From: an uncultured Sarcina sp.
GTDB taxonomy: Bacteria > Bacillota > Clostridia > Clostridiales > Clostridiaceae
Assembly (NCBI GenBank): GCA_963559995.1
Contig: CAUWNL010000001.1
Span: 13,108 to 77,107 of the forward strand
Length of the DNA stretch: 64,000 bases
Direction: 5' to 3'
Part shown: one piece after another, positions 12,611-33,241 of the stretch
Layout: the number at the start of each line of letters is the position of its first letter
Numbering within the stretch: the first letter of the stretch is position 1
Program-made: the position numbers and the translations under genes
The notes under the pieces: model-generated
Database searches by the model: none
What the model was told of the DNA's origin: nothing
What the model saw: the letters and a program-made list of their open reading frames with translations, nothing else

Positions 12611-14287
12611 CTAAAATTTAAGAAATTCAGTTATTGGTCCAAGACCTAATGCAGGAAGGAATGTTAAAGCACCTATAACTAAAATAATGCAGAATAACAT
12701 AACTCCAAAAATAGCATTATCAGTTTTAAATGTTCCTACAGTTTCTGGAACCTTCCTCTTATTAGCTAATGATAAACCAGCAGCTAGTAAAAGTAAAATA
12801 GGAGCATACCTTGCTATAAGCATAATAATTGCAGTTAGTATATTCCAGTATCCTGTGCCATTTGCAAATCCACCTAAAAGTGAACCATTGTTAGCACTAG
12901 CACTTGTAAATTCATATAGAACTTGGCTCATGCCATGGAAGCTAAGAGCAATTCCACTATGTAAGCCTATACCACTTATTAATGTAAATGCTGTTGAGAA
13001 TAAAATTAGTATAGGATGTATTAATATAGCTATGGCTATTAATTTTATTTCTCTTGCTTCAACCTTTTTACCTAAAAACTCTGGTGTTCTTCCAACCATA
13101 AGTCCACAGATAAATACAGTTAATAAAACATACATTATTACATTCATGAATCCTGAACCTATACCACCAAATATAGTATTAAGTGACATATTCCAAAGAG
13201 CCATAAATATTGTTATAGGATTTGCAGCATTTAATGCTGAATTTGTAGCACCTGTTGTAAATGCCGTACTTATTGTAGTAAATAACGATGTTCCAAAGTT
13301 ACCAAATCTTAAATCCTGTCCTGTTGAGCCACTAAATGCTTTAGATAAACCTAAGCTTTGAAGAGCATTATTTCCCAAAGAATTTCCATAGTACATAACA
13401 AAGAATGAAATTAAAACTAATACTAGTAACGCAATTATTATTACTACTGATTGTTTTTTATTCTTTATAGTTACACCAAAGCTAACAACAAATGAGCCTG
13501 GTATTACAGTCATTGCTAAGATTTCTATAAAGTTTGAAATAATATTTGGATTTGCAAATGGAGTTGCTGAATTTGCTGCAAAGAAACCGCCACCATTTGT
13601 TCCTAAGAACTTAATAGCTTCTAAAGCTGCTATAGGACCCATTGCAATGTTTTGGAATGTTCCTTCTATGGTTTTTACAGTTATCATGCCTTGAAGTGTT
13701 TCAGGTACTCCTGTAGCTATTAATATTATTGCTATTATAAATGCTCCTGGTATTAAAACCCTTGTTAAAGCTCTTGTAAAATCAACATAAAAGTTTCCAA
13801 GGCTTTTAGACTTTCCAGCAACAGTTCTTATAAATGCAAATCCTATTGCGCAACCAGTAGCTGCTGCTGCAAACATAAGAAATATTATAACTAGCATTTG
13901 GCTTAAATTAGAAATAGCACTTACCCCTGAATAATGTTGAAGATCTGTATTAGTTATAAAAGATACAGCTGTATTAAAAGACAAGCTTGTACCCATACCT
14001 TTTACGTGTTCTGAATTTAATAAAGGAATTAAACCTTGTATTTTTAAGATTATAAATCCTATTAAAAACATAATAAAGTTACTCATAAGCAATGCAATAG
14101 CATATTGCTTAAAGGTCATATCTTCTTTCGATATACCACATATCTTATAAATGCAGTTATCTATTTTACTAAAAAATTTGTCACCCTTATACTGCTTAAA
14201 ATTAATGATATTAGCTAAATACTTACCTATGATAGCTATAAGCACTATAAATATGACTAAAAACAAAATTAGATTTAGCATATTCAT
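12611..14287 (-). CDS. kdpA: K+-transporting ATPase subunit A
   Basis: 558 aa polytopic protein with NTDLQHYSG and GTNGGGF selectivity-filter-like motifs, directly upstream of kdpB. Confidence 0.9.
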   Translation of the reverse strand: MNMLNLILFLVIFIVLIAIIGKYLANIINFKQYKGDKFFSKIDNCIYKICGISKEDMTFKQYAIALLMSNFIMFLIGFIILKIQGLIPLLNSEHVKGMGTSLSFNTAVSFITNTDLQHYSGVSAISNLSQMLVIIFLMFAAAATGCAIGFAFIRTVAGKSKSLGNFYVDFTRALTRVLIPGAFIIAIILIATGVPETLQGMITVKTIEGTFQNIAMGPIAALEAIKFLGTNGGGFFAANSATPFANPNIISNFIEILAMTVIPGSFVVSFGVTIKNKKQSVVIIIALLVLVLISFFVMYYGNSLGNNALQSLGLSKAFSGSTGQDLRFGNFGTSLFTTISTAFTTGATNSALNAANPITIFMALWNMSLNTIFGGIGSGFMNVIMYVLLTVFICGLMVGRTPEFLGKKVEAREIKLIAIAILIHPILILFSTAFTLISGIGLHSGIALSFHGMSQVLYEFTSASANNGSLLGGFANGTGYWNILTAIIMLIARYAPILLLLAAGLSLANKRKVPETVGTFKTDNAIFGVMLFCIILVIGALTFLPALGLGPITEFLKF

Positions 14288-23463: not shown

Positions 23464-24141
23464 ATGATCGAAGTAAAAAATGTAACAAGAAAGTACAAAA
23501 TGGGAAAAGAAATTGTAGTAGCTTTAAATAATGTGTCCTTAAACATTGATAAAGGAGAATTTGTTGCTATTGTTGGACCATCTGGCTCTGGTAAATCTAC
23601 AATAATGCACATAATAGGTGGATTAGATTCTCCAACTGAAGGTCATGTATATTTTGATGGAAAAGATATTTCAAAATATAAAGATAAAGAAAAGGCTAGA
23701 TTTAGAAATTCAGAAATTGGTTTTGTTTTTCAAGCATTTAACCTAGAAAACACTCAAACTGCTTTAGAAAATGTTATGATGCCATTAATATTTTCAGGTT
23801 CTTCAAAAAAAGATAGAAAAATTAAAGCATCTAAAGCTTTAGAACTTGTAGAACTTGGTCATTTAAAAAAACATAAACCAAATGAAATGTCAGGTGGACA
23901 AAGACAAAGAGTCTCTATAGCTAGAGCCCTTGTAAATGACCCTAAAATAATATTTGCTGATGAACCTACTGGGAACCTAGATTCTAAAACTGGTGAAAAT
24001 ATTATAAAACTTTTTAATGAACTAAATGATAAAGGGTACACCATAATAATGGTAACGCACAACATGGATGAAGCTAAAAAAGCTAAGAGAGTTGTAAGAA
24101 TAAAAGATGGAAACATAATTTCAGATTCTCTTAATGTTTAA
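23464..24141 (+). CDS. ABC transporter ATP-binding protein, MacB/LolD-like
   Basis: 225 aa. Walker A GPSGSGKST, signature MSGGQRQRV, Walker B IIFADEPT. Confidence 0.85.
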   Translation: MIEVKNVTRKYKMGKEIVVALNNVSLNIDKGEFVAIVGPSGSGKSTIMHIIGGLDSPTEGHVYFDGKDISKYKDKEKARFRNSEIGFVFQAFNLENTQTALENVMMPLIFSGSSKKDRKIKASKALELVELGHLKKHKPNEMSGGQRQRVSIARALVNDPKIIFADEPTGNLDSKTGENIIKLFNELNDKGYTIIMVTHNMDEAKKAKRVVRIKDGNIISDSLNV

Positions 24142-24177
24142 AATAGCACTAAAATAAAAAATAAAGGAGGTATTTAA

Positions 24178-25497
24178 GTGAAATTTAGCGATAATTTATC
24201 TTTTGCAGTTAGAGATTTAAATAGAAGAAAAAAAAGAACTCTTTTAACATCAATAGGTATAATAGTTGGAACTATCTTAATTCTTTTAATGGTTTCCTTA
24301 GGACTTACGCTAAAGGGTTTCTTAGTTCAAACTATAGATAGCGGTTCAAGTTCTAAAGTAGTTACCGTTGAACCATTTAAAGCTGATTCTAACTTAAAAG
24401 ATATAAAAAATTATACTACATGGCTTAAAACAAATTTTAATAAAATAGATGACTCTACTTTAAGCAAAATAAGCAAAATATCTGGAGTAAATCAAATTCA
24501 GGCATACATAAGTGGCGACTTAGCTAGAATAGAGCTAAATGGTAATACATATAATGCAACCTTTCCTATAATAGGATACGATTTAAATTATAATATTTTT
24601 CTTACTAGTCAAATAGATTCTGCAAAAACATCTTCTAAGGATGTAAACTTTAAATCTATAATTGCAGGAACTACTTTAAACAAGTTTAATGAAAATGATG
24701 TTTTAGTTGGTGAATCACTTTTAAGTGATTTAGGCATAACAAATCCTAATGATATAATAGGAAAACAACTAACTTTTGTTTTAAATAATATAAATGGGAC
24801 TCCTATAACACCTGTTTATAAAACTTTTACAGTTGCAGGAGTAATAAATAAAAACTTATCATCTGGTAATAAAATAGTTATGGATATTCAAAATGCGGCT
24901 AGTCTTATAGGTGTCTTACAATATACTAACAACTTTATGGGTACCTATGGATATAATGGGGTTAAAATAGAAGCAACTAATATAAGTGATGTATCTTCTA
25001 TACAAAATTCATTAACCTCTTTAGGGTATAAAACAAGTTCTAATGAATCAACTACAAAAGAAATAGATAAAAACTTTAATAATGTAACTCTTATGTTATC
25101 TATCTTAGGAATCATAGTTTTAATTGTTGCGGCTATTGGAATTATTAATACTATGATAATGGCGGTTCATGAAAGAACAAAGAGTATTGGAGTTATGAAA
25201 TCCCTTGGAGCTAGTAGTTCTGATATCTTATCTATGTTCTTATTCCAATCTGCTGTTATTGGACTTATAGGTAGTGTTATTGGATCTTTAATAAGCATAG
25301 GATTATTTAAACTTATTAGTTACTATATTCAACAATCCTTGTTAAAGCAAGGTTTTTCACTTAGTCTTCTAAGTAACATTCCTTGGTGGCTTATAGCAGC
25401 TACTATTGCCTTTTCAGTTATAATATCCTTACTTGCAGGAATTTATCCAGCTATAAGAGCATCAAAACTAGACCCAATTGAAGCATTAAGACATTAA
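24178..25497 (+). CDS. FtsX/MacB-type ABC permease 1 (4 TM with a large extracytoplasmic domain)
   Basis: 439 aa. GTG start behind AAAGGAGG, N-terminal TM helix, roughly 280-aa external domain, and a C-terminal 3-TM FtsX domain (HERTKSIGVMKSLGAS). Confidence 0.75.
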   Translation: MKFSDNLSFAVRDLNRRKKRTLLTSIGIIVGTILILLMVSLGLTLKGFLVQTIDSGSSSKVVTVEPFKADSNLKDIKNYTTWLKTNFNKIDDSTLSKISKISGVNQIQAYISGDLARIELNGNTYNATFPIIGYDLNYNIFLTSQIDSAKTSSKDVNFKSIIAGTTLNKFNENDVLVGESLLSDLGITNPNDIIGKQLTFVLNNINGTPITPVYKTFTVAGVINKNLSSGNKIVMDIQNAASLIGVLQYTNNFMGTYGYNGVKIEATNISDVSSIQNSLTSLGYKTSSNESTTKEIDKNFNNVTLMLSILGIIVLIVAAIGIINTMIMAVHERTKSIGVMKSLGASSSDILSMFLFQSAVIGLIGSVIGSLISIGLFKLISYYIQQSLLKQGFSLSLLSNIPWWLIAATIAFSVIISLLAGIYPAIRASKLDPIEALRH

Positions 25498-25510
25498 GGA
25501 GGAGTATGTT

Positions 25511-26815
25511 ATGAAAATTTCAGATGGTATTTTTATATCCTTAAGAGATATAAAAAGAAGAAAACTTAGAAGTATATTAACTATTATAGCCATTTCAGTA
25601 GGTAGCATGCTTTTAGTTGCTATGCAGGGTATGGGAACCTCTATAAGTTCAAATGCTACAAAATTTATCACAAGCTTTGGCAGTTTAGAGAATGTTATAG
25701 TTATGCCTCAAAAGTATGAATCAAATTATAACTTTGCTACACATCTTAATTTAGACTCTTCAAGCACTATGCTTCCTTATGTTGCTAATAAACAAGAAAG
25801 TTCTAAAACTGTAGATTTAACTAAAATCATTGATGATAACACCGTTAAAAGTGTTTCACAAATTAAAAATGTAAATAGCGTAAGTGCTTACAATACAGCT
25901 ACTGCTAGTACTATTAGCCTAAGTGGTATACATAACACTGCCTCTGATGTAACTGTTCAAGGGTATAGCAAAGATTATAATTACAGTGCTAAGATTCTTT
26001 ATGGTAAGCAATTAAGCGGAGCCTCTGGAGAATTTTTAGTTGATGAGGCCTTTTTAAAGAATTTAGGAATAACTGATTATTCTAGTGCTATAGGTAAAAC
26101 CATAACCTTAACTGTACATTCTCAATTATCTACCACACCTTTAACCATTACTGGAACAATCGAAGGTATATTTAAACAAGGCACTTTCGATTTAGGTGAT
26201 GTAATAACTTATAATACCGTAACAAACAAAATGATAGATTATTCCTATGGACTTACACCTACTACTAATTCAAAGGCAACATACTCTATGATAAGTTTGT
26301 ATGCAAATAGTCAATCTGATGTAAATGCAATAACAAGTACAATAAACAATAATTTAGGTTATGAAACATTTAACCTAGGTCAAATTGTTGGTCTTGCTAA
26401 TATATTTGTAGGTTTTGTTAATGGTCTTTTAGATTTAGCAGCTATAATTGTTGTAATTGTTGCTGGAATCGGCCTTGTAAATACTATGAATATGACAGTC
26501 CAAGAAAAGAAAAAATGGATTGGAATTATGAGTTCACTTGGAGCTTCTAAATCTAATATAAGATTTATTTTCCTAGCACAATCTATAATTCTTGGAACAC
26601 TAGGTGCAATCTTAGGTTCTATAATAGGATATATCGCTTTACTTTTGGTAAATCAATATTTAATCATGTCAGGAAAAGATTTTACAATTGTTATAACCCC
26701 TTTGATTATAATCTCTTCTATAATTATAACAATAGTGGTTTCAATAATTGCAGGACTTATCCCTGCATCAAAGGCTGCAAAATTAGATGTTATTGAGATT
26801 ATAAATGAAGAATAA
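25511..26815 (+). CDS. FtsX/MacB-type ABC permease 2
   Basis: 434 aa with the same architecture (QEKKKWIGIMSSLGAS). Low similarity to permease 1. Confidence 0.75.
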   Translation: MKISDGIFISLRDIKRRKLRSILTIIAISVGSMLLVAMQGMGTSISSNATKFITSFGSLENVIVMPQKYESNYNFATHLNLDSSSTMLPYVANKQESSKTVDLTKIIDDNTVKSVSQIKNVNSVSAYNTATASTISLSGIHNTASDVTVQGYSKDYNYSAKILYGKQLSGASGEFLVDEAFLKNLGITDYSSAIGKTITLTVHSQLSTTPLTITGTIEGIFKQGTFDLGDVITYNTVTNKMIDYSYGLTPTTNSKATYSMISLYANSQSDVNAITSTINNNLGYETFNLGQIVGLANIFVGFVNGLLDLAAIIVVIVAGIGLVNTMNMTVQEKKKWIGIMSSLGASKSNIRFIFLAQSIILGTLGAILGSIIGYIALLLVNQYLIMSGKDFTIVITPLIIISSIIITIVVSIIAGLIPASKAAKLDVIEIINEE

Positions 26816-27041: not shown

Positions 27042-27773
27042 TTATCTTGCCACTATCTCATCTATATTGTCAGGTTTACCTACATAAAGCCCACCGTGAT
27101 AGCAACATACTCTTTCAATATCTAATTCTTTTAACTTCTTTAAAGATTCTCTAGCTTCTTTAGGGTCATTGTTGTACATATCTGAAACAATATTTAATTT
27201 TCCACCTTCATTAGCTAAAGTATCCCCTGTTATTAAAGTTTTGTCTTTTGCTATATATAAGCAAATATGTCCTGGAGTGTGCCCTGGAGTCCCTACAACT
27301 TCAATTTTTGCTCCAGCTAAGTTTAAAACATCACCAGGTTTTATTATTTCATCAACATTTACATAAGACCTTGGAAATCCTGCCTTTAGCATTTCATAAA
27401 ATCCTTTTTTAGCTTCATCTAAACTATCTTTAACTTTTTCTAAGTTAGCTAATTTTATTGGAGTCTTTCTTCCTGAAATATATTCAGCTTCTATTTCAGT
27501 AGCTAATATCTTAACTTTATCTCCTAATAATTCTTTAAATTCTCTAGCTGAACCTACATGGTCTATATCATGATGTGTCATTATTATTGTTTTTAATTTA
27601 TTTATATCTATGTACTTCTCAATAGCTTTTTTTAACCCTTCATATCTTCCTGGGTAGTCTGTATCAACTAAAACAGCTTCCTCATCATTATATATTAAAA
27701 CTGGGTTTACAAACCTCATCTCTTCAATTCCAGGAATATCTGCAGTTAAAACCTCTATTTTATAATTACTCAT
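27042..27773 (-). CDS. MBL-fold metallo-hydrolase
   Basis: 243 aa. THHDIDHVG (HxHxDH) and a downstream GHTPGH. Confidence 0.8.
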   Translation of the reverse strand: MSNYKIEVLTADIPGIEEMRFVNPVLIYNDEEAVLVDTDYPGRYEGLKKAIEKYIDINKLKTIIMTHHDIDHVGSAREFKELLGDKVKILATEIEAEYISGRKTPIKLANLEKVKDSLDEAKKGFYEMLKAGFPRSYVNVDEIIKPGDVLNLAGAKIEVVGTPGHTPGHICLYIAKDKTLITGDTLANEGGKLNIVSDMYNNDPKEARESLKKLKELDIERVCCYHGGLYVGKPDNIDEIVAR

Positions 27774-28126: not shown

Positions 28127-28819
28127 CTAATCATTAAATCTATATCCTGTGCCCCAAATAGTCTCTATGTATTCAGGATTTGATGGGTCTTGCTCTAGTT
28201 TTTTTCTAAGCTTTTGAATATGTACTGCAACAGTTGCAGTATCTCCTATATATTCTTCACCCCAAATTCTATTAAATAGCTTATCCTTTGTAAAAACTAT
28301 ATTAGGATTTGTAGCTAAAAATAATAAAAGTTCGTATTCTTTAGTTGTTAATATAATCTCCTTTCCTCTTATAAAAACCTTATGAGAATCCGTTCTTATC
28401 TCTAAGGCCTTATTAGTTATTATATCACTTGATGGCTTTTTACCTATAAGCCTTTCGTACCTTATTATATGAGATTTTATTCTAGCAACAAGTTCTGCTG
28501 GGCTAAAGGGCTTTGTTAAATAATCATCTGCCCCAAAACCTAAGCCTCTTATTTTATCTATATCCTCAGTTTTTGCTGAGACTATTATTATAGGAACTTC
28601 TGACTTTTCCCTTACCTCTTTTACAATATCATAACCACTTCTTCCTGGAAGCATTATATCAACTATTATAAGTTCATACTTATTGCTTAATGCCTTTTTT
28701 AATCCCTCATCTCCATCATAGATAAGTTCTACGTTATATCCATTTAATTGTAGATAATCTCTTTCAAGTTCTGCAATATTTAAATCATCTTCTATTATTA
28801 GAATTTTTTTCTCGTCCAT
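28127..28819 (-). CDS. OmpR/PhoB-family response regulator
   Basis: The start is moved to ATG 28819 (MDEKKILIIEDD), 7 nt after AAGGAGG. The ORF-track start at 28837 lies inside the kinase gene. Winged helix ...IWGTGYRF. Confidence 0.85.
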   Translation of the reverse strand: MDEKKILIIEDDLNIAELERDYLQLNGYNVELIYDGDEGLKKALSNKYELIIVDIMLPGRSGYDIVKEVREKSEVPIIIVSAKTEDIDKIRGLGFGADDYLTKPFSPAELVARIKSHIIRYERLIGKKPSSDIITNKALEIRTDSHKVFIRGKEIILTTKEYELLLFLATNPNIVFTKDKLFNRIWGEEYIGDTATVAVHIQKLRKKLEQDPSNPEYIETIWGTGYRFND

Positions 28820-28821
28820 TT

Positions 28822-30135
28822 TTAGTCCTCCTTGCAATTATCAATGCTTTCTTTACTATATAACGGCAAACTTATAGTAAATGTAGTCCCTTCATTTAAT
28901 TCACTTTTAACTTTAATATCCCCACCATGGGCTTCTACTATCTCTTTAGCTATAGCAAGGCCTAATCCAGTACTTAATAAATCTTTAGTTCTTTCTTTAT
29001 CTATTCTATAAAATCTTTCAAAGACATGTTTTAAATGTTCCTTTTCAATACCTGGGCCATTATCCATTATATCAATAAATACGAAATCATCATTATTATA
29101 TAAGGTAACCTCTATAGATAAATTCTCAGTAGTTCCGTACTTTATAGCATTACCTATAATATTTCTAATAGTTCTATAAATTCTTTTTCCATCTATATTT
29201 ACAAATAAATCTACCTTTAAATTATCTATATATTTAAACCCTATATTTTCTTCTCCTAATATAAAAGTAAACTCTTCTATAACATCCATCATATACATTC
29301 TTATATTAGTTCTATTAAATGAAAAATCTAATTTTTGTACATCTAATTGAGAAAATAAGAATAAATCATCAATTAATCTATTCATATATCCTATGTTGCT
29401 TTGAATTGTTTTTAAATAGCCATCTACTTTTTCTTTAGACTCAATTTTTCCATCTACAATAAATTCTATATACCCATTTATTGATGTTATTGGAGTTTTT
29501 AAATCATGAGAAATATTTGCTATAAGATTTTTTCTATTTTCCTCATATTCAACCTTTAGTTTTTCTCCCTCTTCAAGCTTACTTGCCATATCATTAAAAG
29601 CTCTTGTTAAAATTCCAATTTCATTAAATGAATTATTTTCAACTCTTACTGAATAATCCCCTGTTGAAATTTTTTCAACTCCGTCCTTTAACTTTTCTAT
29701 AGGTTTAACTATCTTTCTCTCTAATCTATAATAAATATAAATATTTGCTATTTCATTTATAGCAAAAAATACTGCAAAGAATATAGTAATTGCCTTTATT
29801 CCTATACTTACAAACATTATTGCAGTTATAATTATACTGACTATAAGTGCTACAAACTTAAAATATACCATATACCTATGAAATAAATAAAATTCCTCTC
29901 TACCTTTATGAGATAATTCAGCATAAGGGTGATGAGTATTTCCTCTATGATGGGATTCAGTATCCCTTTCTATTCGATTATCTGCATTTAGTGAATACTG
30001 CTCTTCTTTTCCATGATTATAAGTATCATTAAATTTTCTATGATATTTATAATGAATATGATAATTTTTAATCATTCTATGATGCTCCCTATGCTCTTTA
30101 ATCTTTTCAATTATACTTTCTTTTAAATTTTTCAT
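28822..30135 (-). CDS. Histidine kinase with a His-rich cytoplasmic N-terminal extension, a TM hairpin, and HAMP, HisKA and HATPase domains
   Basis: 437 aa. 13 His in the first 86 residues (KEHREHHRMIKNYHIHYKYHRK...SHHRGNTHHP). Two TM helices with a minimal loop. H-box ISHDLKTPITSINGY and ATP-binding motif DNGPGI...TGLGLAI. Confidence 0.8.
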   Translation of the reverse strand: MKNLKESIIEKIKEHREHHRMIKNYHIHYKYHRKFNDTYNHGKEEQYSLNADNRIERDTESHHRGNTHHPYAELSHKGREEFYLFHRYMVYFKFVALIVSIIITAIMFVSIGIKAITIFFAVFFAINEIANIYIYYRLERKIVKPIEKLKDGVEKISTGDYSVRVENNSFNEIGILTRAFNDMASKLEEGEKLKVEYEENRKNLIANISHDLKTPITSINGYIEFIVDGKIESKEKVDGYLKTIQSNIGYMNRLIDDLFLFSQLDVQKLDFSFNRTNIRMYMMDVIEEFTFILGEENIGFKYIDNLKVDLFVNIDGKRIYRTIRNIIGNAIKYGTTENLSIEVTLYNNDDFVFIDIMDNGPGIEKEHLKHVFERFYRIDKERTKDLLSTGLGLAIAKEIVEAHGGDIKVKSELNEGTTFTISLPLYSKESIDNCKED

Positions 30136-30221
30136 TTTAACCTCTAATAAAACTATTTTTTTATATAACTGTCTATATTACCATTTATATCATATTAATA
30201 TTACACCCTAAAACAAAAGAA

Positions 30222-30265
30222 AGGAATTTAAGTTTGGTTAATAAATAACATAAACTTAAATTCCT
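30222..30265 (-). terminator. Intrinsic terminator between the His-rich protein gene and the kinase gene
   Basis: Perfect 14-bp stem AGGAATTTAAGTTT / AAACTTAAATTCCT, followed on the minus strand by TTCTTTTGTTTT. Confidence 0.7.
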
Positions 30266-30309
30266 AAAATTAAAATATTTGAGTTTTACCTTGAATAATT
30301 AATTACTTA

Positions 30310-30975
30310 TTACCAGTTTAAAACTAAGCTTATGTCAAAGTTTTTATCACCAGTTCCTTTAGCTTCAAGTTTTTCAACTTCAAAGTTTTTGTTTACATAC
30401 ACATTTAATTTAGCTTCATCATAGTTTCCACAGAATATTTTTTTCATGCATTTTTTATGCATCATCATAATATCATGATGAGCTTTTTGTTCTTCTGTTA
30501 ATTGTATTTGTCCACTTTCACAAGCTGCTTTAAATTCTTGCATTCTTTCTTCTTTAAATGCTTTCATAGCTGCTTTAAGGTCAACTTTTATTAAGTGTCC
30601 TTCACCATTTGCTTCTACTTCAATATCATTTAATCTCTTTAATACGAATGCTATATGTGATAATTTGCCTTTCATTCCACCATGACATCCATGTCCGTGC
30701 ATTCCATGATGTCCATGAGCCATTCTTTTCATTTCTTTAATTTTATTTAGATCTAACTCTTTTTTAACTTCAGCATTTACTTTGAAATCTTCATAGTTTA
30801 TATCTGCTTTTAAATCTATATTTGCTATTCCTTTTGCTATATTTTTGTTGAATTTATTAGTTATAGCCATACCTTTTCCATCTTTTTCTGATACGTTAAG
30901 TTTACCTTCACCCTTAAACTCTTCTTTATCCTTCATAGTTGATACCACTTTGTATAATACTTCTAATTTGTTCAT
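30310..30975 (-). CDS. Hypothetical cytoplasmic protein with a His/Met/Cys-rich metal-binding-like motif
   Basis: 221 aa with no signal peptide or TM helix. Residues 85-101 read MAHGHHGMHGHGCHGGM (nt 30673-30723). A second patch reads AHHDIMMMHKKCMKKIFC. RBS AGGAGGAAT precedes the ATG. Confidence 0.6.
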   Translation of the reverse strand: MNKLEVLYKVVSTMKDKEEFKGEGKLNVSEKDGKGMAITNKFNKNIAKGIANIDLKADINYEDFKVNAEVKKELDLNKIKEMKRMAHGHHGMHGHGCHGGMKGKLSHIAFVLKRLNDIEVEANGEGHLIKVDLKAAMKAFKEERMQEFKAACESGQIQLTEEQKAHHDIMMMHKKCMKKIFCGNYDEAKLNVYVNKNFEVEKLEAKGTGDKNFDISLVLNW

Positions 30976-31233
30976 AATAAATTCCTCCTAAAATATATTA
31001 TTTACATATAACTTCATTTAATTGTTTATAGATTTAACTTTTAATAAGTCTAAACCTTATCTATTAAATAAATTTTATTTATGTACTTATTTGTTTTGTT
31101 CTTTGCTATGATTTAATTTTAGACTAATAAGTTAAAAATTAAATAAAGTAATTATAAAATTTTTATAAAATTTTTTAACTAATAAGTTTAAACTTTTAAT
31201 AAATATGAAACCCAGTCCTACTAAGGTATAGTA

Positions 31234-31383: not shown

Positions 31384-31812
31384 ATGGAATTTAGTATGGG
31401 AAGAAACCTAAGTTTTATTTACAGATCTTATCATAAATATATGAATAAAGTTTTAAAAGATATAAATGTCTCTGCTGGTGAATTTCCTATTTTATTTGCT
31501 CTTTCAAAACGAGATGGGCTAGGACAAAATGAATTAAGTAGGGTTGTCATAATGAACAAATCTTTAGTATCTAGACATATACAAACTCTTTCAACTAAAG
31601 GCTTTATAAATGTAAACCAAGAAAAAGAAAGCAATAATAAAAATATTCTTTCATTATCTGATAAGGGTAAAGAATTAATGCCTAAAATAATAACTGCAAA
31701 AAATAACTGGGAACGAGAAGTGTTGAAAGACTTCACATCTAAGGAAAAGGAATGTTTTTTTAACATGTTAGATAAATTATTAGAAGCTTCTTTTAACGTA
31801 ATAAAAGAATAA
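31384..31812 (+). CDS. MarR-family transcriptional regulator
   Basis: 142 aa. HTH LGQNELSRVVIMNKSLVSRHIQTLSTKGFI. Directly upstream of a MATE efflux gene. Confidence 0.75.
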   Translation: MEFSMGRNLSFIYRSYHKYMNKVLKDINVSAGEFPILFALSKRDGLGQNELSRVVIMNKSLVSRHIQTLSTKGFINVNQEKESNNKNILSLSDKGKELMPKIITAKNNWEREVLKDFTSKEKECFFNMLDKLLEASFNVIKE

Positions 31813-31855
31813 AATTAAATACATATAAAAATAAATTTAGGGGAAAGAATATGAA

Positions 31856-33241
31856 ATGAATAAACAAGAAAGATTAGGCAAAGATCCTATTGGAAAGCTC
31901 CTTTTAGAGTTTTCCATTCCTACAATAATATCTATGATGGTAAATGCACTATACACTATAATAGATAGAATTTATATTGGGCATATACCTGGAATTGGTT
32001 ATTTAGCTATAGTTGGGGTTGGAGTTACTCAACCTTTAACTTTAATTATCTTTGCATTTTCCATGCTTATTGGAACTGGTGCATCTATTTACATATCTAT
32101 AAATTTAGGTAAAGGCAATAAAGAAGAGGCAGAAAAAACCCTAGGAAATACATTACTTCTTACTATTATAGTTGGCGCTATCATTACTGTGGTAGGTCTT
32201 TTACTTCTAACTCCAAGTCTTTATGCCTTTGGAGCAACTGCTAATACTCTTATTTATGGACAAGAGTTTATGAGGATTTTATTTATAGGAACTATTTTTA
32301 ATATGTTCAGTTTTGTATTAACTCAAATAATTAGAGCTGATGGTAGTCCTAAAAAGGCCATGAATATACTTTTAATTGGAATAATCATAAACATAATATT
32401 AGATCCAATACTTATATTTTTACTTGGTCTTGGTGTTACAGGTGCTGCTATTGCTACAGTAACATCTCAAATTATAATAACAATATTGTCTTTTAGATAT
32501 TTTAAAAGTAAACATAGCGTTCTTAAAATATTAAAAAGTACCTTTAAACTTAACTATAAAAGAAGTTTAAATACGTCAAAATTAGGAATAGCAGCTTTTG
32601 CAACTCAATTGACATCTAGTTTAGTTTTAGTTGTCGCAAATAATTCTCTAAAACTTCATGGTGGAGCTTTATCAATAGGTGCTATGACAATAATAGCCGC
32701 TGTTGCACAGGTTTTCTATACTCCTGTTTATGGTATAAACCAAGGAGCCCAGCCTATTATTGGATTTAATTTTGGTGCAAAAAAAATTAAACGTACCATA
32801 GATACAGTATCTAAAGCTAGTATTGCAGCTACTATTTTAATGATTTGTGCCTTTTTAGTTATTGAAATATTTCCAAAAGAAGTTATTGAAATATTTAATG
32901 GAAATTTAACTCTTATAAATGATACAGTTTTTGGAATGAGAATCTATTTACTTTGCTTACCTCTTGATGGATTCCAAATAATTGCTAGTAACTATTTTAG
33001 ATCAATTGGTCATGTTAAAATAGCAACATTTTTAGGCCAGCTTAGAAAAGGACTTTTATTTATACCCCTTGTATTTATTCTTCCCGTGTTTTGGGGGATT
33101 ACAGGAGTTTGGCTATCAGGCTGTATGGGAGATTTCCTTTCATTCTTAATAACTGCAATTATATTCTTTAGAGAAGTGAGAAAACTTAAGAAAACTAGAG
33201 AGTATAAAGCTGAATTAGAAGAAAGTAAATTAATAGCATAA
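31856..33241 (+). CDS. MATE-family multidrug efflux transporter
   Basis: 461 aa with 12 TM helices. N-terminus GKLLLEFSIPTIISMMVNALYTIIDRIYIG is typical of the MATE/NorM family. Confidence 0.85.
   Translation: MNKQERLGKDPIGKLLLEFSIPTIISMMVNALYTIIDRIYIGHIPGIGYLAIVGVGVTQPLTLIIFAFSMLIGTGASIYISINLGKGNKEEAEKTLGNTLLLTIIVGAIITVVGLLLLTPSLYAFGATANTLIYGQEFMRILFIGTIFNMFSFVLTQIIRADGSPKKAMNILLIGIIINIILDPILIFLLGLGVTGAAIATVTSQIIITILSFRYFKSKHSVLKILKSTFKLNYKRSLNTSKLGIAAFATQLTSSLVLVVANNSLKLHGGALSIGAMTIIAAVAQVFYTPVYGINQGAQPIIGFNFGAKKIKRTIDTVSKASIAATILMICAFLVIEIFPKEVIEIFNGNLTLINDTVFGMRIYLLCLPLDGFQIIASNYFRSIGHVKIATFLGQLRKGLLFIPLVFILPVFWGITGVWLSGCMGDFLSFLITAIIFFREVRKLKKTREYKAELEESKLIA

Follow-up and report, generated by a model that had tools for sequence, protein, structure and literature searches.

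A conserved clostridial three-gene cassette joins a histidine kinase with a His-rich cytoplasmic head to a candidate metal-buffering protein

We examined a three-gene locus on a 64-kb stretch of DNA from an uncultured Sarcina sp. (contig CAUWNL010000001.1). Below, "the window" refers to this full 64-kb stretch, and all coordinates count from its first letter. On the minus strand, positions 28127 to 31200 hold a gene for a 221-amino-acid (aa) protein that we call HP, a hairpin terminator, a gene for a sensor histidine kinase, and a gene for an OmpR/PhoB-family response regulator (Table 1). Sequence comparisons reveal that the three genes are linked across many genomes, that the kinase has a conserved His-rich head, that HP is preceded by a conserved promoter built of direct repeats, and that HP is predicted to form a transcription unit of its own. 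The likeliest explanation, to which we give about even odds, is that the cassette is a self-contained sense-and-buffer system that acts wholly on the cytoplasmic side of the membrane. Given the amino acid composition of the proteins and analogy with known systems, it is plausible that a metal is the signal, that the kinase head is the sensor, and that HP is the metal buffer.

The cassette recurs as a unit. In a scan of species-representative genomes, the HP gene lies directly upstream of, and co-directional with, orthologous kinase and regulator genes in 10/10 loci, with identities of 49-89% for the kinase and 69-100% for the regulator. A scan of metagenomes, made with a narrower HP alignment, yielded 47 loci, of which about 40 had enough downstream DNA for the gene order to be judged. 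The HP-kinase-regulator order is found in 37 of them, and HP identity drops to ~26-33% while the identity of the regulator to the window protein stays at 64-79%. A search that started from the kinase recovered the same arrangement in Clostridium beijerinckii and Clostridium ljungdahlii, and when open reading frames (ORFs) in the neighborhoods were clustered, only HP (57 loci), the kinase (47 loci), and the regulator (45 loci) recurred. Taken together, HP directly precedes the orthologous pair in about 50 loci of Sarcina, Clostridium, and metagenomes. In one locus (L015), the order is regulator-kinase-HP. A first-pass annotation of this DNA had proposed that the two-component system controls HP, and the conserved linkage in these loci supports such wiring; every feature quoted there was also located where it had been placed.

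The kinase stands out by its N-terminal segment. Its catalytic core is conventional (PF00512, E = 2.6e−15; PF02518, E = 2.9e−29; HAMP, E = 1.5e−12) and is closest to WalK/VicK-type solved kinases. Ahead of this core, one Lys is all that separates two hydrophobic helices (residues 94-113 and 115-136), and the kinase therefore has no extracellular domain. Both ends of this hairpin must lie in the cytoplasm, and so must the head that precedes it. Residues 1 to 86 contain 13 His (15%), compared to a mean of 1.08% His in the long ORFs (binomial P ~ 1e−11), and no other 86-aa stretch in the window's 43 long ORFs is as dense in His; the rest of the kinase (344 residues) has 4 His. The counts confirm what had been described at first reading, namely a kinase with two helices, a minimal loop, and 13 His in about 86 cytoplasmic residues.

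A His-rich head is present in 37/38 tabulated kinase orthologs. Across the 38 orthologs, the segment before helix 1 has a median length of 50 aa (range, 36-93 aa) and a median of 8.5 His, or 16% His. A clade-specific insertion places the head of Sarcina with the longest. The heads are rich in His, Glu, Arg, and Lys and contain few Cys or Met. Just ahead of the first membrane helix they share a motif that approximates H-H-x-(H/R)-x-x-E-F-x-x-Y-H-(R/K)-Y-x-R-Y-x-R-P. Retention of the head in nearly all orthologs, together with this motif by the membrane, shows that the head is not low-complexity drift; the first-pass annotation had named its absence or lack of conservation in orthologs as grounds for refutation, and neither is seen. 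Nothing in the PDB matches kinase residues 1-188, and our literature searches found no account of kinases with His-rich cytoplasmic heads, the closest item being a preprint about a periplasmic His motif of Acinetobacter baumannii PmrB (discussed below).

The regulator has the two expected domains (PF00072, E = 2.6e−27; PF00486, E = 7.2e−29), and its closest solved relatives are MtrA, RegX3, and BaeR. Its ATG at 28819 has an AAGGAGG ribosome-binding site, lies 2 nt past the stop codon of the kinase, and gives a protein of 230 aa; from this context, it appears a likelier start than the upstream TTG at 28837 given in the ORF list. In NCBIfam, neither the kinase nor the regulator reaches the cut-off of any named system, VanRS, WalRK, and the heavy-metal kinases among them.

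HP has 11 His, 4 Cys, and 13 Met in 221 aa, with clusters at residues 85-101 (MAHGHHGMHGHGCHGGM) and 166-182 (within AHHDIMMMHKKCMKKIFC, residues 165-182). As read from the sequence, its N terminus (MNKLEVLYKVVSTMKDKEEF) contains no signal peptide, and a lipobox is also absent; hence, HP is not expected to reside at the envelope. A word-indexed search with HP returned 7 clusters only. A full profile search of 1.84 billion representatives returned 126 HP-related clusters at E = 1e−3 or better, 57 of them at E = 1e−10 or better, and nearly all were 200-280 aa long. The carriers include Sarcina ventriculi, Candidatus Sarcina troglodytae, C. beijerinckii, C. ljungdahlii, C. carboxidivorans, C. scatologenes, C. 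drakei, and Desulfosporosinus. Family members begin with a shared pattern, MNK(I/L)(K/E)xLY, and are built on a common scaffold with two hypervariable His/Cys-rich insertion sites, which we call hot spots 1 and 2. Across the family, His and Cys peak at 35-45% of protein length, at hot spot 1, whose position is such an insertion site in all family members. The second peak of both residues is at 65-80% of protein length, at hot spot 2, where a conserved HH stands ahead of F-M-K-E-L. The median His content of the family is 5.6%, and His and Cys together make up at least 6% of the residues in 96/113 members. In some members (for example, P0013), Cys clusters replace the His runs.

The first-pass annotation had not placed the 221-aa protein in any named family, and profile searches led to the same result. 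A Pfam and NCBIfam scan of the window HP gave nothing above threshold, and none of 34 family members examined against Pfam matched at E = 0.01 or better. We rejected an assignment to PF22374 (Clospo_01618-like), against which HP scores 15.7 bits with a threshold of 27 and which 0/34 family members match. A sequence search of the PDB with HP retrieved no relatives, only His-tag and coiled-coil noise. We also rejected a copper/silver-type HxxM/MxxH signature as a trait of the family. Such spacings can be read in the window HP (HHGM, HGGM, HDIM, and MMMH, along with an HxxC spacing), and in Sarcina they are reminiscent of Cu/Ag sponges, but across the family HxxM/MxxH is not enriched and falls below the label-shuffle expectation. 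In one family member of 348 aa (P0007; locus L007, NZ_CAMTIG010000027.1), the sequence surrounding each His-rich region is internally duplicated, which shows that such regions grow by tandem duplication.

An AlphaFold2 model of HP, based on a 34-sequence alignment, has a predicted local distance difference test score (pLDDT) of 85.5 and a predicted template modeling score (pTM) of 0.79, and contains nine strands and five helices. Residues 91-99 are disordered in the model (pLDDT < 50), while hot spot 2 sits in a predicted helix (residues 161-181). The top Foldseek matches in the PDB are LprG, LolA, and the staphylococcal Csa1/SAOUHSC_02783 lipoproteins (probability, 1.0; E = 2e−4 to 2e−3), and an earlier model from 8 sequences (pLDDT, 68) gave the same fold matches. 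Template modeling (TM) scores to the LprG/LolA-like matches are only 0.30-0.48, with sequence identities of 5-12%, and we regard the modeled resemblance as one of fold only. The LolA/LprG-like superfamily is characterized by an unclosed beta-barrel whose helices cap a hydrophobic cavity, and by export to the envelope. LprG, LolA, and Csa1 bind lipids and are either secreted or lipid-anchored, whereas HP lacks a signal peptide and is interrupted by His/Cys-rich insertions.

Upstream of HP we found a promoter layout, spanning 31116-31170, that consists of four nTTTA(T/A)A repeats (TTTTATA-type), 5 nt (TAGTC in the window), and a −10 box. All loci with sufficient sequence upstream of HP show the four-repeat layout, in exact 11-bp phase and at a fixed distance from the −10 box. 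In an alignment of 12 loci the TTTA cores do not vary, and the repeats are recognizable, in gapless register, in ~55 loci across Clostridium, Sarcina, and higher-GC metagenome contigs; in the latter, the repeats are kept although the flanks have diverged completely. A position-weight matrix made from the repeat sites scores the HP promoter at 28.1 bits, the sole strong site in the window. The next-best hit (13749-13792; 13.6 bits) lies inside a 558-aa ORF and was rejected as a further regulon site. The expected −35 position falls in repeat 3, and the hexamer read there is a poor match, as expected of an activator-dependent promoter.

PhoB binds 7-bp direct repeats with 11-bp spacing, which stop ~10 bp short of the −10 box and stand in for the −35 element. 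The HP promoter is similar to the pho box in its direct repeats at 11-bp spacing, of which there are four here, and 9 nt separate the end of the last core from the −10 box. The predicted sites differ from the pho box in sequence (nTTTA(T/A)A here, CTGTCAT there). We infer that the phosphorylated regulator activates rather than represses HP.

In the first-pass annotation, HP was a plausible, separately transcribed target of the two-component system, with candidate regulator sites at three upstream repeats centered on TAATAAGT. The separate transcription is backed by the terminator and by the conserved phased repeats, while the motif was wrong, and the conserved boxes over the −35 region take its place. 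The TAATAAGT 8-mer occurs at chance frequency in the window (18 copies versus 15.8 expected), and L005 and L006, the closest relatives (protein identities of 96% and 92%), have already lost the copies upstream of HP or carry them in mutated form. The middle one of the three partly coincides with repeat 4 and with the HP promoter spacer.

The terminator between HP and the kinase gene, which had been noted as cleanly separating HP from the kinase-regulator pair, is indeed present. It has a perfect stem followed by UUUCUUUUGUUUU, a hairpin dG of −16.8 kcal/mol, and a region z-score of −2.7; with fewer than 3 G-C pairs, it escaped a generic terminator scan. It is kept in L005 and L006, and a terminator-like hairpin is found 3′ of HP in 21/38 loci. 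No repeat box was detected in the HP-kinase spacer of any locus, and we therefore rejected autoregulation through a second box before the kinase gene. The combination of no box before the kinase gene and a terminator after HP predicts that HP is transcribed separately, in a regulator-dependent manner, and that the kinase-regulator pair has its own promoter. Two loci (L032 and L054) keep the boxes with no two-component system nearby, which suggests control in trans. Comparison of the ~130-nt HP leader to Rfam gave no match, and the leader varies in length from ~30 to 150 nt between loci; a riboswitch or known RNA in the leader was rejected.

Three further observations concern these intergenic regions. 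In a C. mediterraneense-like clade (L001:8904-9170), the space between HP and the kinase gene is occupied, on the opposite strand, by an 88-aa SemiSWEET-type gene (MtN3/PQ-loop). This arrangement confirms that transcription of the kinase-regulator pair need not depend on HP. A CTCATAG/CAAA-like element is present in ~40 loci just 3′ of the −10 box, at the probable transcription start (31098-31115 in the window, minus strand), and its conservation exceeds what a start site needs. A 14-nt element, TAATAAGTYTAAAC, occurs in two copies that flank the HP promoter (31036-31055 and 31176-31192), one upstream of the regulator boxes and the other in the ~130-nt leader. It is degraded in L005 and L006 and may be a candidate site for a strain-specific second regulator, such as the divergently encoded MarR-family protein described below.

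We propose the following mechanism for the cassette. The His/Arg/Lys-rich head of the kinase would be anchored to helix 1 by the H-H-x-x-E-F-x-x-Y-H-R-Y motif. As free Zn, Ni, Co, or Cu rises in the cytoplasm, the ion would be bound by the head, and binding would change the geometry of the helical hairpin and HAMP domain and turn on autophosphorylation. The phosphorylated regulator would then bind as tandem dimers to the four 11-bp-phased nTTTA(T/A)A repeats, which replace the −35 element, and activate HP as a separate short transcript that stops at the terminator. HP would be a folded, LolA/LprG-like half-barrel with two flexible His/Cys-rich segments that sequesters the metal or hands it on. 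Capture of the metal by HP would weaken the signal and so provide negative feedback, and HP may also touch the head directly.

We favor a metal as the signal because His and Cys swap at the same two sites of HP and because Cys content covaries between sensor and target, neither of which would be seen with a pH sensor. Metal ligands, unlike pH sensors, typically have His and Cys replacing one another at given sites. Across the orthologs, counts in the head correlate with counts in the partner HP for both His (rho = 0.38, P = 0.018) and Cys (rho = 0.41, P = 0.011), with neither value corrected for phylogeny. Given that lack of correction, we count these correlations as weak support. Among the metals, Zn, Ni, or Co is pointed to because the heads are rich in His, Glu, Arg, and Lys and have few Cys or Met. 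A more specific version of the proposal is that this kinase is the first of a class that senses an intracellular transition metal by a short His-rich head in place of a periplasmic domain and that is hard-wired to a single target, a folded cytoplasmic metal buffer of a new family, with hypervariable His/Cys loops on a LolA-like scaffold, that docks on the head and thereby closes a feedback loop. We hold this version only tentatively and consider it on the doubtful side.

Several observations weigh against a metal-sensing and metal-buffering cassette. A LolA/LprG-like fold usually binds lipids rather than metals. Every database name within the HP family is "hypothetical protein," and our literature searches on the family and on locus tags such as Ccar_03330 found no description of it. 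Clustering of neighboring ORFs identified no recurring transporter, chaperone, or known metalloregulator that could name the metal. In three loci (L032, L054, and L057), HP has no adjacent two-component system, and in the distant family member L015, the partner kinase has no His-rich head. The strongly basic character of the kinase head leaves room for a different role, and the correlations between head and HP may reflect shared ancestry. Finally, Firmicutes normally rely on one-component repressors to sense metals in the cytoplasm, which would make a two-component solution unusual.

Instead of a metal, the signal could be a perturbation of the membrane or envelope. In this case, the kinase would be an ordinary intramembrane-sensing kinase with the head as an anchor, and HP would bind a lipid or another hydrophobic molecule in a membrane-stress response. 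The hairpin with its single-residue outside loop is what such an explanation predicts, since minimal-loop kinases typically report envelope stress, and Foldseek ties HP to the lipid-binding LprG and LolA. However, the TM-scores given above are low, HP has neither a signal peptide nor a lipobox and is thus not at the envelope, and no ABC transporter or LiaF-like gene is linked to the cassette, though such genes are typical of these kinases. Envelope sensing also leaves unexplained both the conserved His positions of the head and the His and Cys content of at least 6%, at two fixed sites, in 96/113 HP members. We consider this explanation unlikely.

A second possibility is that the cassette has the same wiring and responds to acidification of the cytoplasm. 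Protonation of the His residues of the head (pKa near 6) would activate the kinase, and HP would be an acid-stress protein. Both the head and HP are His-rich, the carriers are fermentative acid producers, protonation of His is a known pH-sensing principle in other kinases, and such a role would suit the acid-tolerant Sarcina. On the other hand, many members of the HP family have Cys clusters in place of, or next to, His at the hot spots, and Cys is not titrated around pH 6. Moreover, about 12 His per protein would make a poor bulk proton buffer, and the covariation of Cys counts between head and HP is at odds with a proton signal. Acid sensing thus appears improbable to us.

It is also conceivable, and in our view similarly improbable, that HP itself is the true sensor or a co-sensor. 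Ligand-bound HP would dock on the head, possibly through a shared metal ion, and induction of HP would constitute a feedback loop. The strict linkage of HP with this type of kinase, the covariation of His and Cys content between the two proteins, and the much faster evolution of HP than of the kinase and regulator, as is often the case for accessory partners, are all consistent with such a role. CpxP-CpxA and ZraP-ZraS provide precedents in which the strongest target is the feedback partner. Yet three loci have HP with no neighboring kinase, and a co-sensor role for HP is compatible with metal sensing by the head rather than exclusive of it.

Least probable is a response to oxidative or redox stress, in which His, Cys, and Met of the head and HP would be oxidized by oxygen or peroxide, possibly via a bound metal, and HP would be a sacrificial scavenger or a redox-protected metal store: HP is enriched in these oxidizable residues, all carriers are strict anaerobes, and a preprint proposes that the Ni-loaded His motif of Acinetobacter baumannii PmrB, although periplasmic, senses reactive oxygen species (bioRxiv 10.64898/2026.04.08.717352), but Cys and Met are scarce in the kinase heads, the HP hot spots show no family-wide concentration of Met, and clustering of neighboring ORFs linked no peroxidase, rubrerythrin, or thioredoxin gene to the cassette.

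In its logic, the proposed metal-responsive cassette is closest to SilE-SilRS, PcoE-CusRS, ZraP-ZraSR, and CopM-CopRS, all of which are periplasmic and none of which is homologous to HP. SilE-SilRS and PcoE-CusRS/PcoRS, the silver and copper resistance systems of enterobacterial plasmids, likewise place a non-enzymatic His/Met-rich sponge, with its own regulator-dependent promoter, beside a two-component system. SilE and PcoE, however, are secreted, disordered, periplasmic proteins, while HP is predicted to be folded and cytoplasmic and has no sequence homology to them. HP does not belong to the SilE/PcoE group, as it has no signal peptide, a well-folded model, no family-wide enrichment of HxxM/MxxH, and no Pfam match. 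The Sil and Pco kinases have a periplasmic sensor domain of ~130-150 aa, in contrast to the single-residue outside loop of the window kinase. In the zinc-responsive ZraP-ZraSR envelope stress system of Escherichia coli and Salmonella, a metal-binding protein is similarly the main target of the adjacent two-component system and feeds back on it. ZraP differs from HP in being periplasmic, all-helical, and a member of the CpxP/Spy family, which HP, with its nine strands and five helices, does not match. ZraR is a sigma-54 activator and ZraS a periplasmic metal sensor, whereas the regulator here is OmpR-type. In Synechocystis, the copMRS genes encode a His/Met-rich copper-binding protein together with the OmpR-type two-component system that induces it, but CopM is an exported DUF305 protein, a domain to which HP has no match, and CopS has a periplasmic/lumenal sensing domain.

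The kinase itself can be compared to two groups. The heavy-metal kinases CusS, CopS, SilS, and CzcS (TIGR01386) have the same HAMP-HisKA-HATPase_c core and an OmpR-family regulator, and the proposed signal here is likewise a metal. Against TIGR01386, the window kinase scores 158.6 bits and does not reach the cut-off of 292.55. The kinases of that family have a periplasmic metal-binding domain between the helices, whereas the window kinase has none and carries an N-terminal cytoplasmic head instead. The intramembrane-sensing kinases LiaS, BceS, and SaeS also have two membrane helices, with an outside linker of less than ~25 aa, which is reduced to a single residue here. They have practically no N-terminal extension and are linked to BceAB, LiaF, or SaePQ, in contrast to the 36- to 93-aa head and the lack of such a neighbor in our cassette. 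We suggest that a metal-type two-component system and its sponge have been moved to the cytoplasmic face of the membrane and built on a new protein family, the metal part of which can reasonably be inferred by analogy.

To our knowledge, all metal-responsive two-component systems described so far sense the periplasm or the outside. In the prevailing view, Gram-positive bacteria monitor metals in the cytoplasm with one-component repressors. If the proposal is correct, a kinase and a target that both face the cytoplasm would represent a new input mode for histidine kinases and a new family of metal-handling proteins. It would also add an unrecognized layer of metal homeostasis across Clostridia, including the industrial species C. 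beijerinckii, C. ljungdahlii, and C. carboxidivorans. The cassette is found in solvent- and syngas-fermenting Clostridia, in which trace metals (Ni, Co, Zn, and Fe) limit performance, as well as in Sarcina of the gut and stomach. The conserved HP promoter provides a defined putative regulator box and is a compact, probably tightly regulated inducible promoter that could become a genetic tool. Should the signal be something other than a metal, the cassette would still offer a widespread and clean two-component system with a single target, accessible to direct study.

Table 1. Coordinates of the cassette and its features in the window
Feature	Position	Strand	Basis or remark
HP, 221 aa	30310..30975	-	ORF with AGGAGG ribosome-binding site; proposed regulated target and putative metal-binding output
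Sensor histidine kinase, 437 aa (head, two-helix membrane hairpin, HAMP, HisKA, HATPase_c)	28822..30135	-	Pfam domains
OmpR/PhoB-family response regulator, 230 aa	28127..28819	-	Response_reg and Trans_reg_C; translationally coupled to kinase gene
Intrinsic terminator between HP and kinase genes	30222..30265	-	14-bp stem and U-tract
Cytoplasmic His-rich kinase head, residues 1-93	29857..30135	-	13 His in 86 residues; conserved in orthologs
Conserved juxtamembrane motif, kinase residues 75-93, SHKGREEFYLFHRYMVYFK	29857-29913	-	shared by ortholog heads
Kinase membrane hairpin, residues 94-113 and 115-136	29728..29856	-	read from sequence; layout conserved in orthologs
HP hot spot 1, residues 84-101, RMAHGHHGMHGHGCHGGM	30673..30726	-	disordered His-rich loop between helices in the model
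HP hot spot 2, residues 166-182, HHDIMMMHKKCMKKIFC	30430..30480	-	His/Met/Cys stripe on a predicted helix
Four direct repeats in 11-bp phase, TTTTATAAAAA, TTTTATAATTA, CTTTATTTAAT, TTTTAACTTAT	31127..31170	-	putative phosphorylated-regulator sites over the -35 region
-10 box of HP promoter, TAAAAT	31116..31121	-	aligned with TATAAT of other loci
Three TAATAAGT copies of the first-pass annotation	31042-31049, 31125-31132, 31180-31187		present; probably not functional sites

In addition to the cassette, we recorded the genes around it. In C. beijerinckii (L068:3587-3790), a 67-aa Cys-rich protein (CxxxxxxxxxC...HCDNKCFKC), named DUF1450 in UniRef, is encoded between HP and the kinase, and it could be a clade-specific extra metal or redox component. 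Divergent from HP in the window (31384-33241, plus strand) are genes for a MarR-family regulator (142 aa) and a MATE efflux pump (461 aa). This pair is also found a few kb from HP in L001-type loci, at ~31% identity, and because it occurs in 6 loci only, it is probably no part of the cassette. Downstream of the regulator gene lie genes for a metallo-beta-lactamase-fold protein (27042-27773, minus strand) and for an ABC ATPase with two FtsX-type permeases (23464-26815, plus strand), which are conserved in the Sarcina clade only. Proteins of S. ventriculi NCTC12966 are 82-97% identical to those of the window. The proteins of L005 (JAUNBX010000030.1), labeled as a Clostridium perfringens metagenome-assembled genome, are 88-100% identical to the window's over a 16-kb locus, and, judging by these identities, this contig is probably a mis-binned Sarcina contig.

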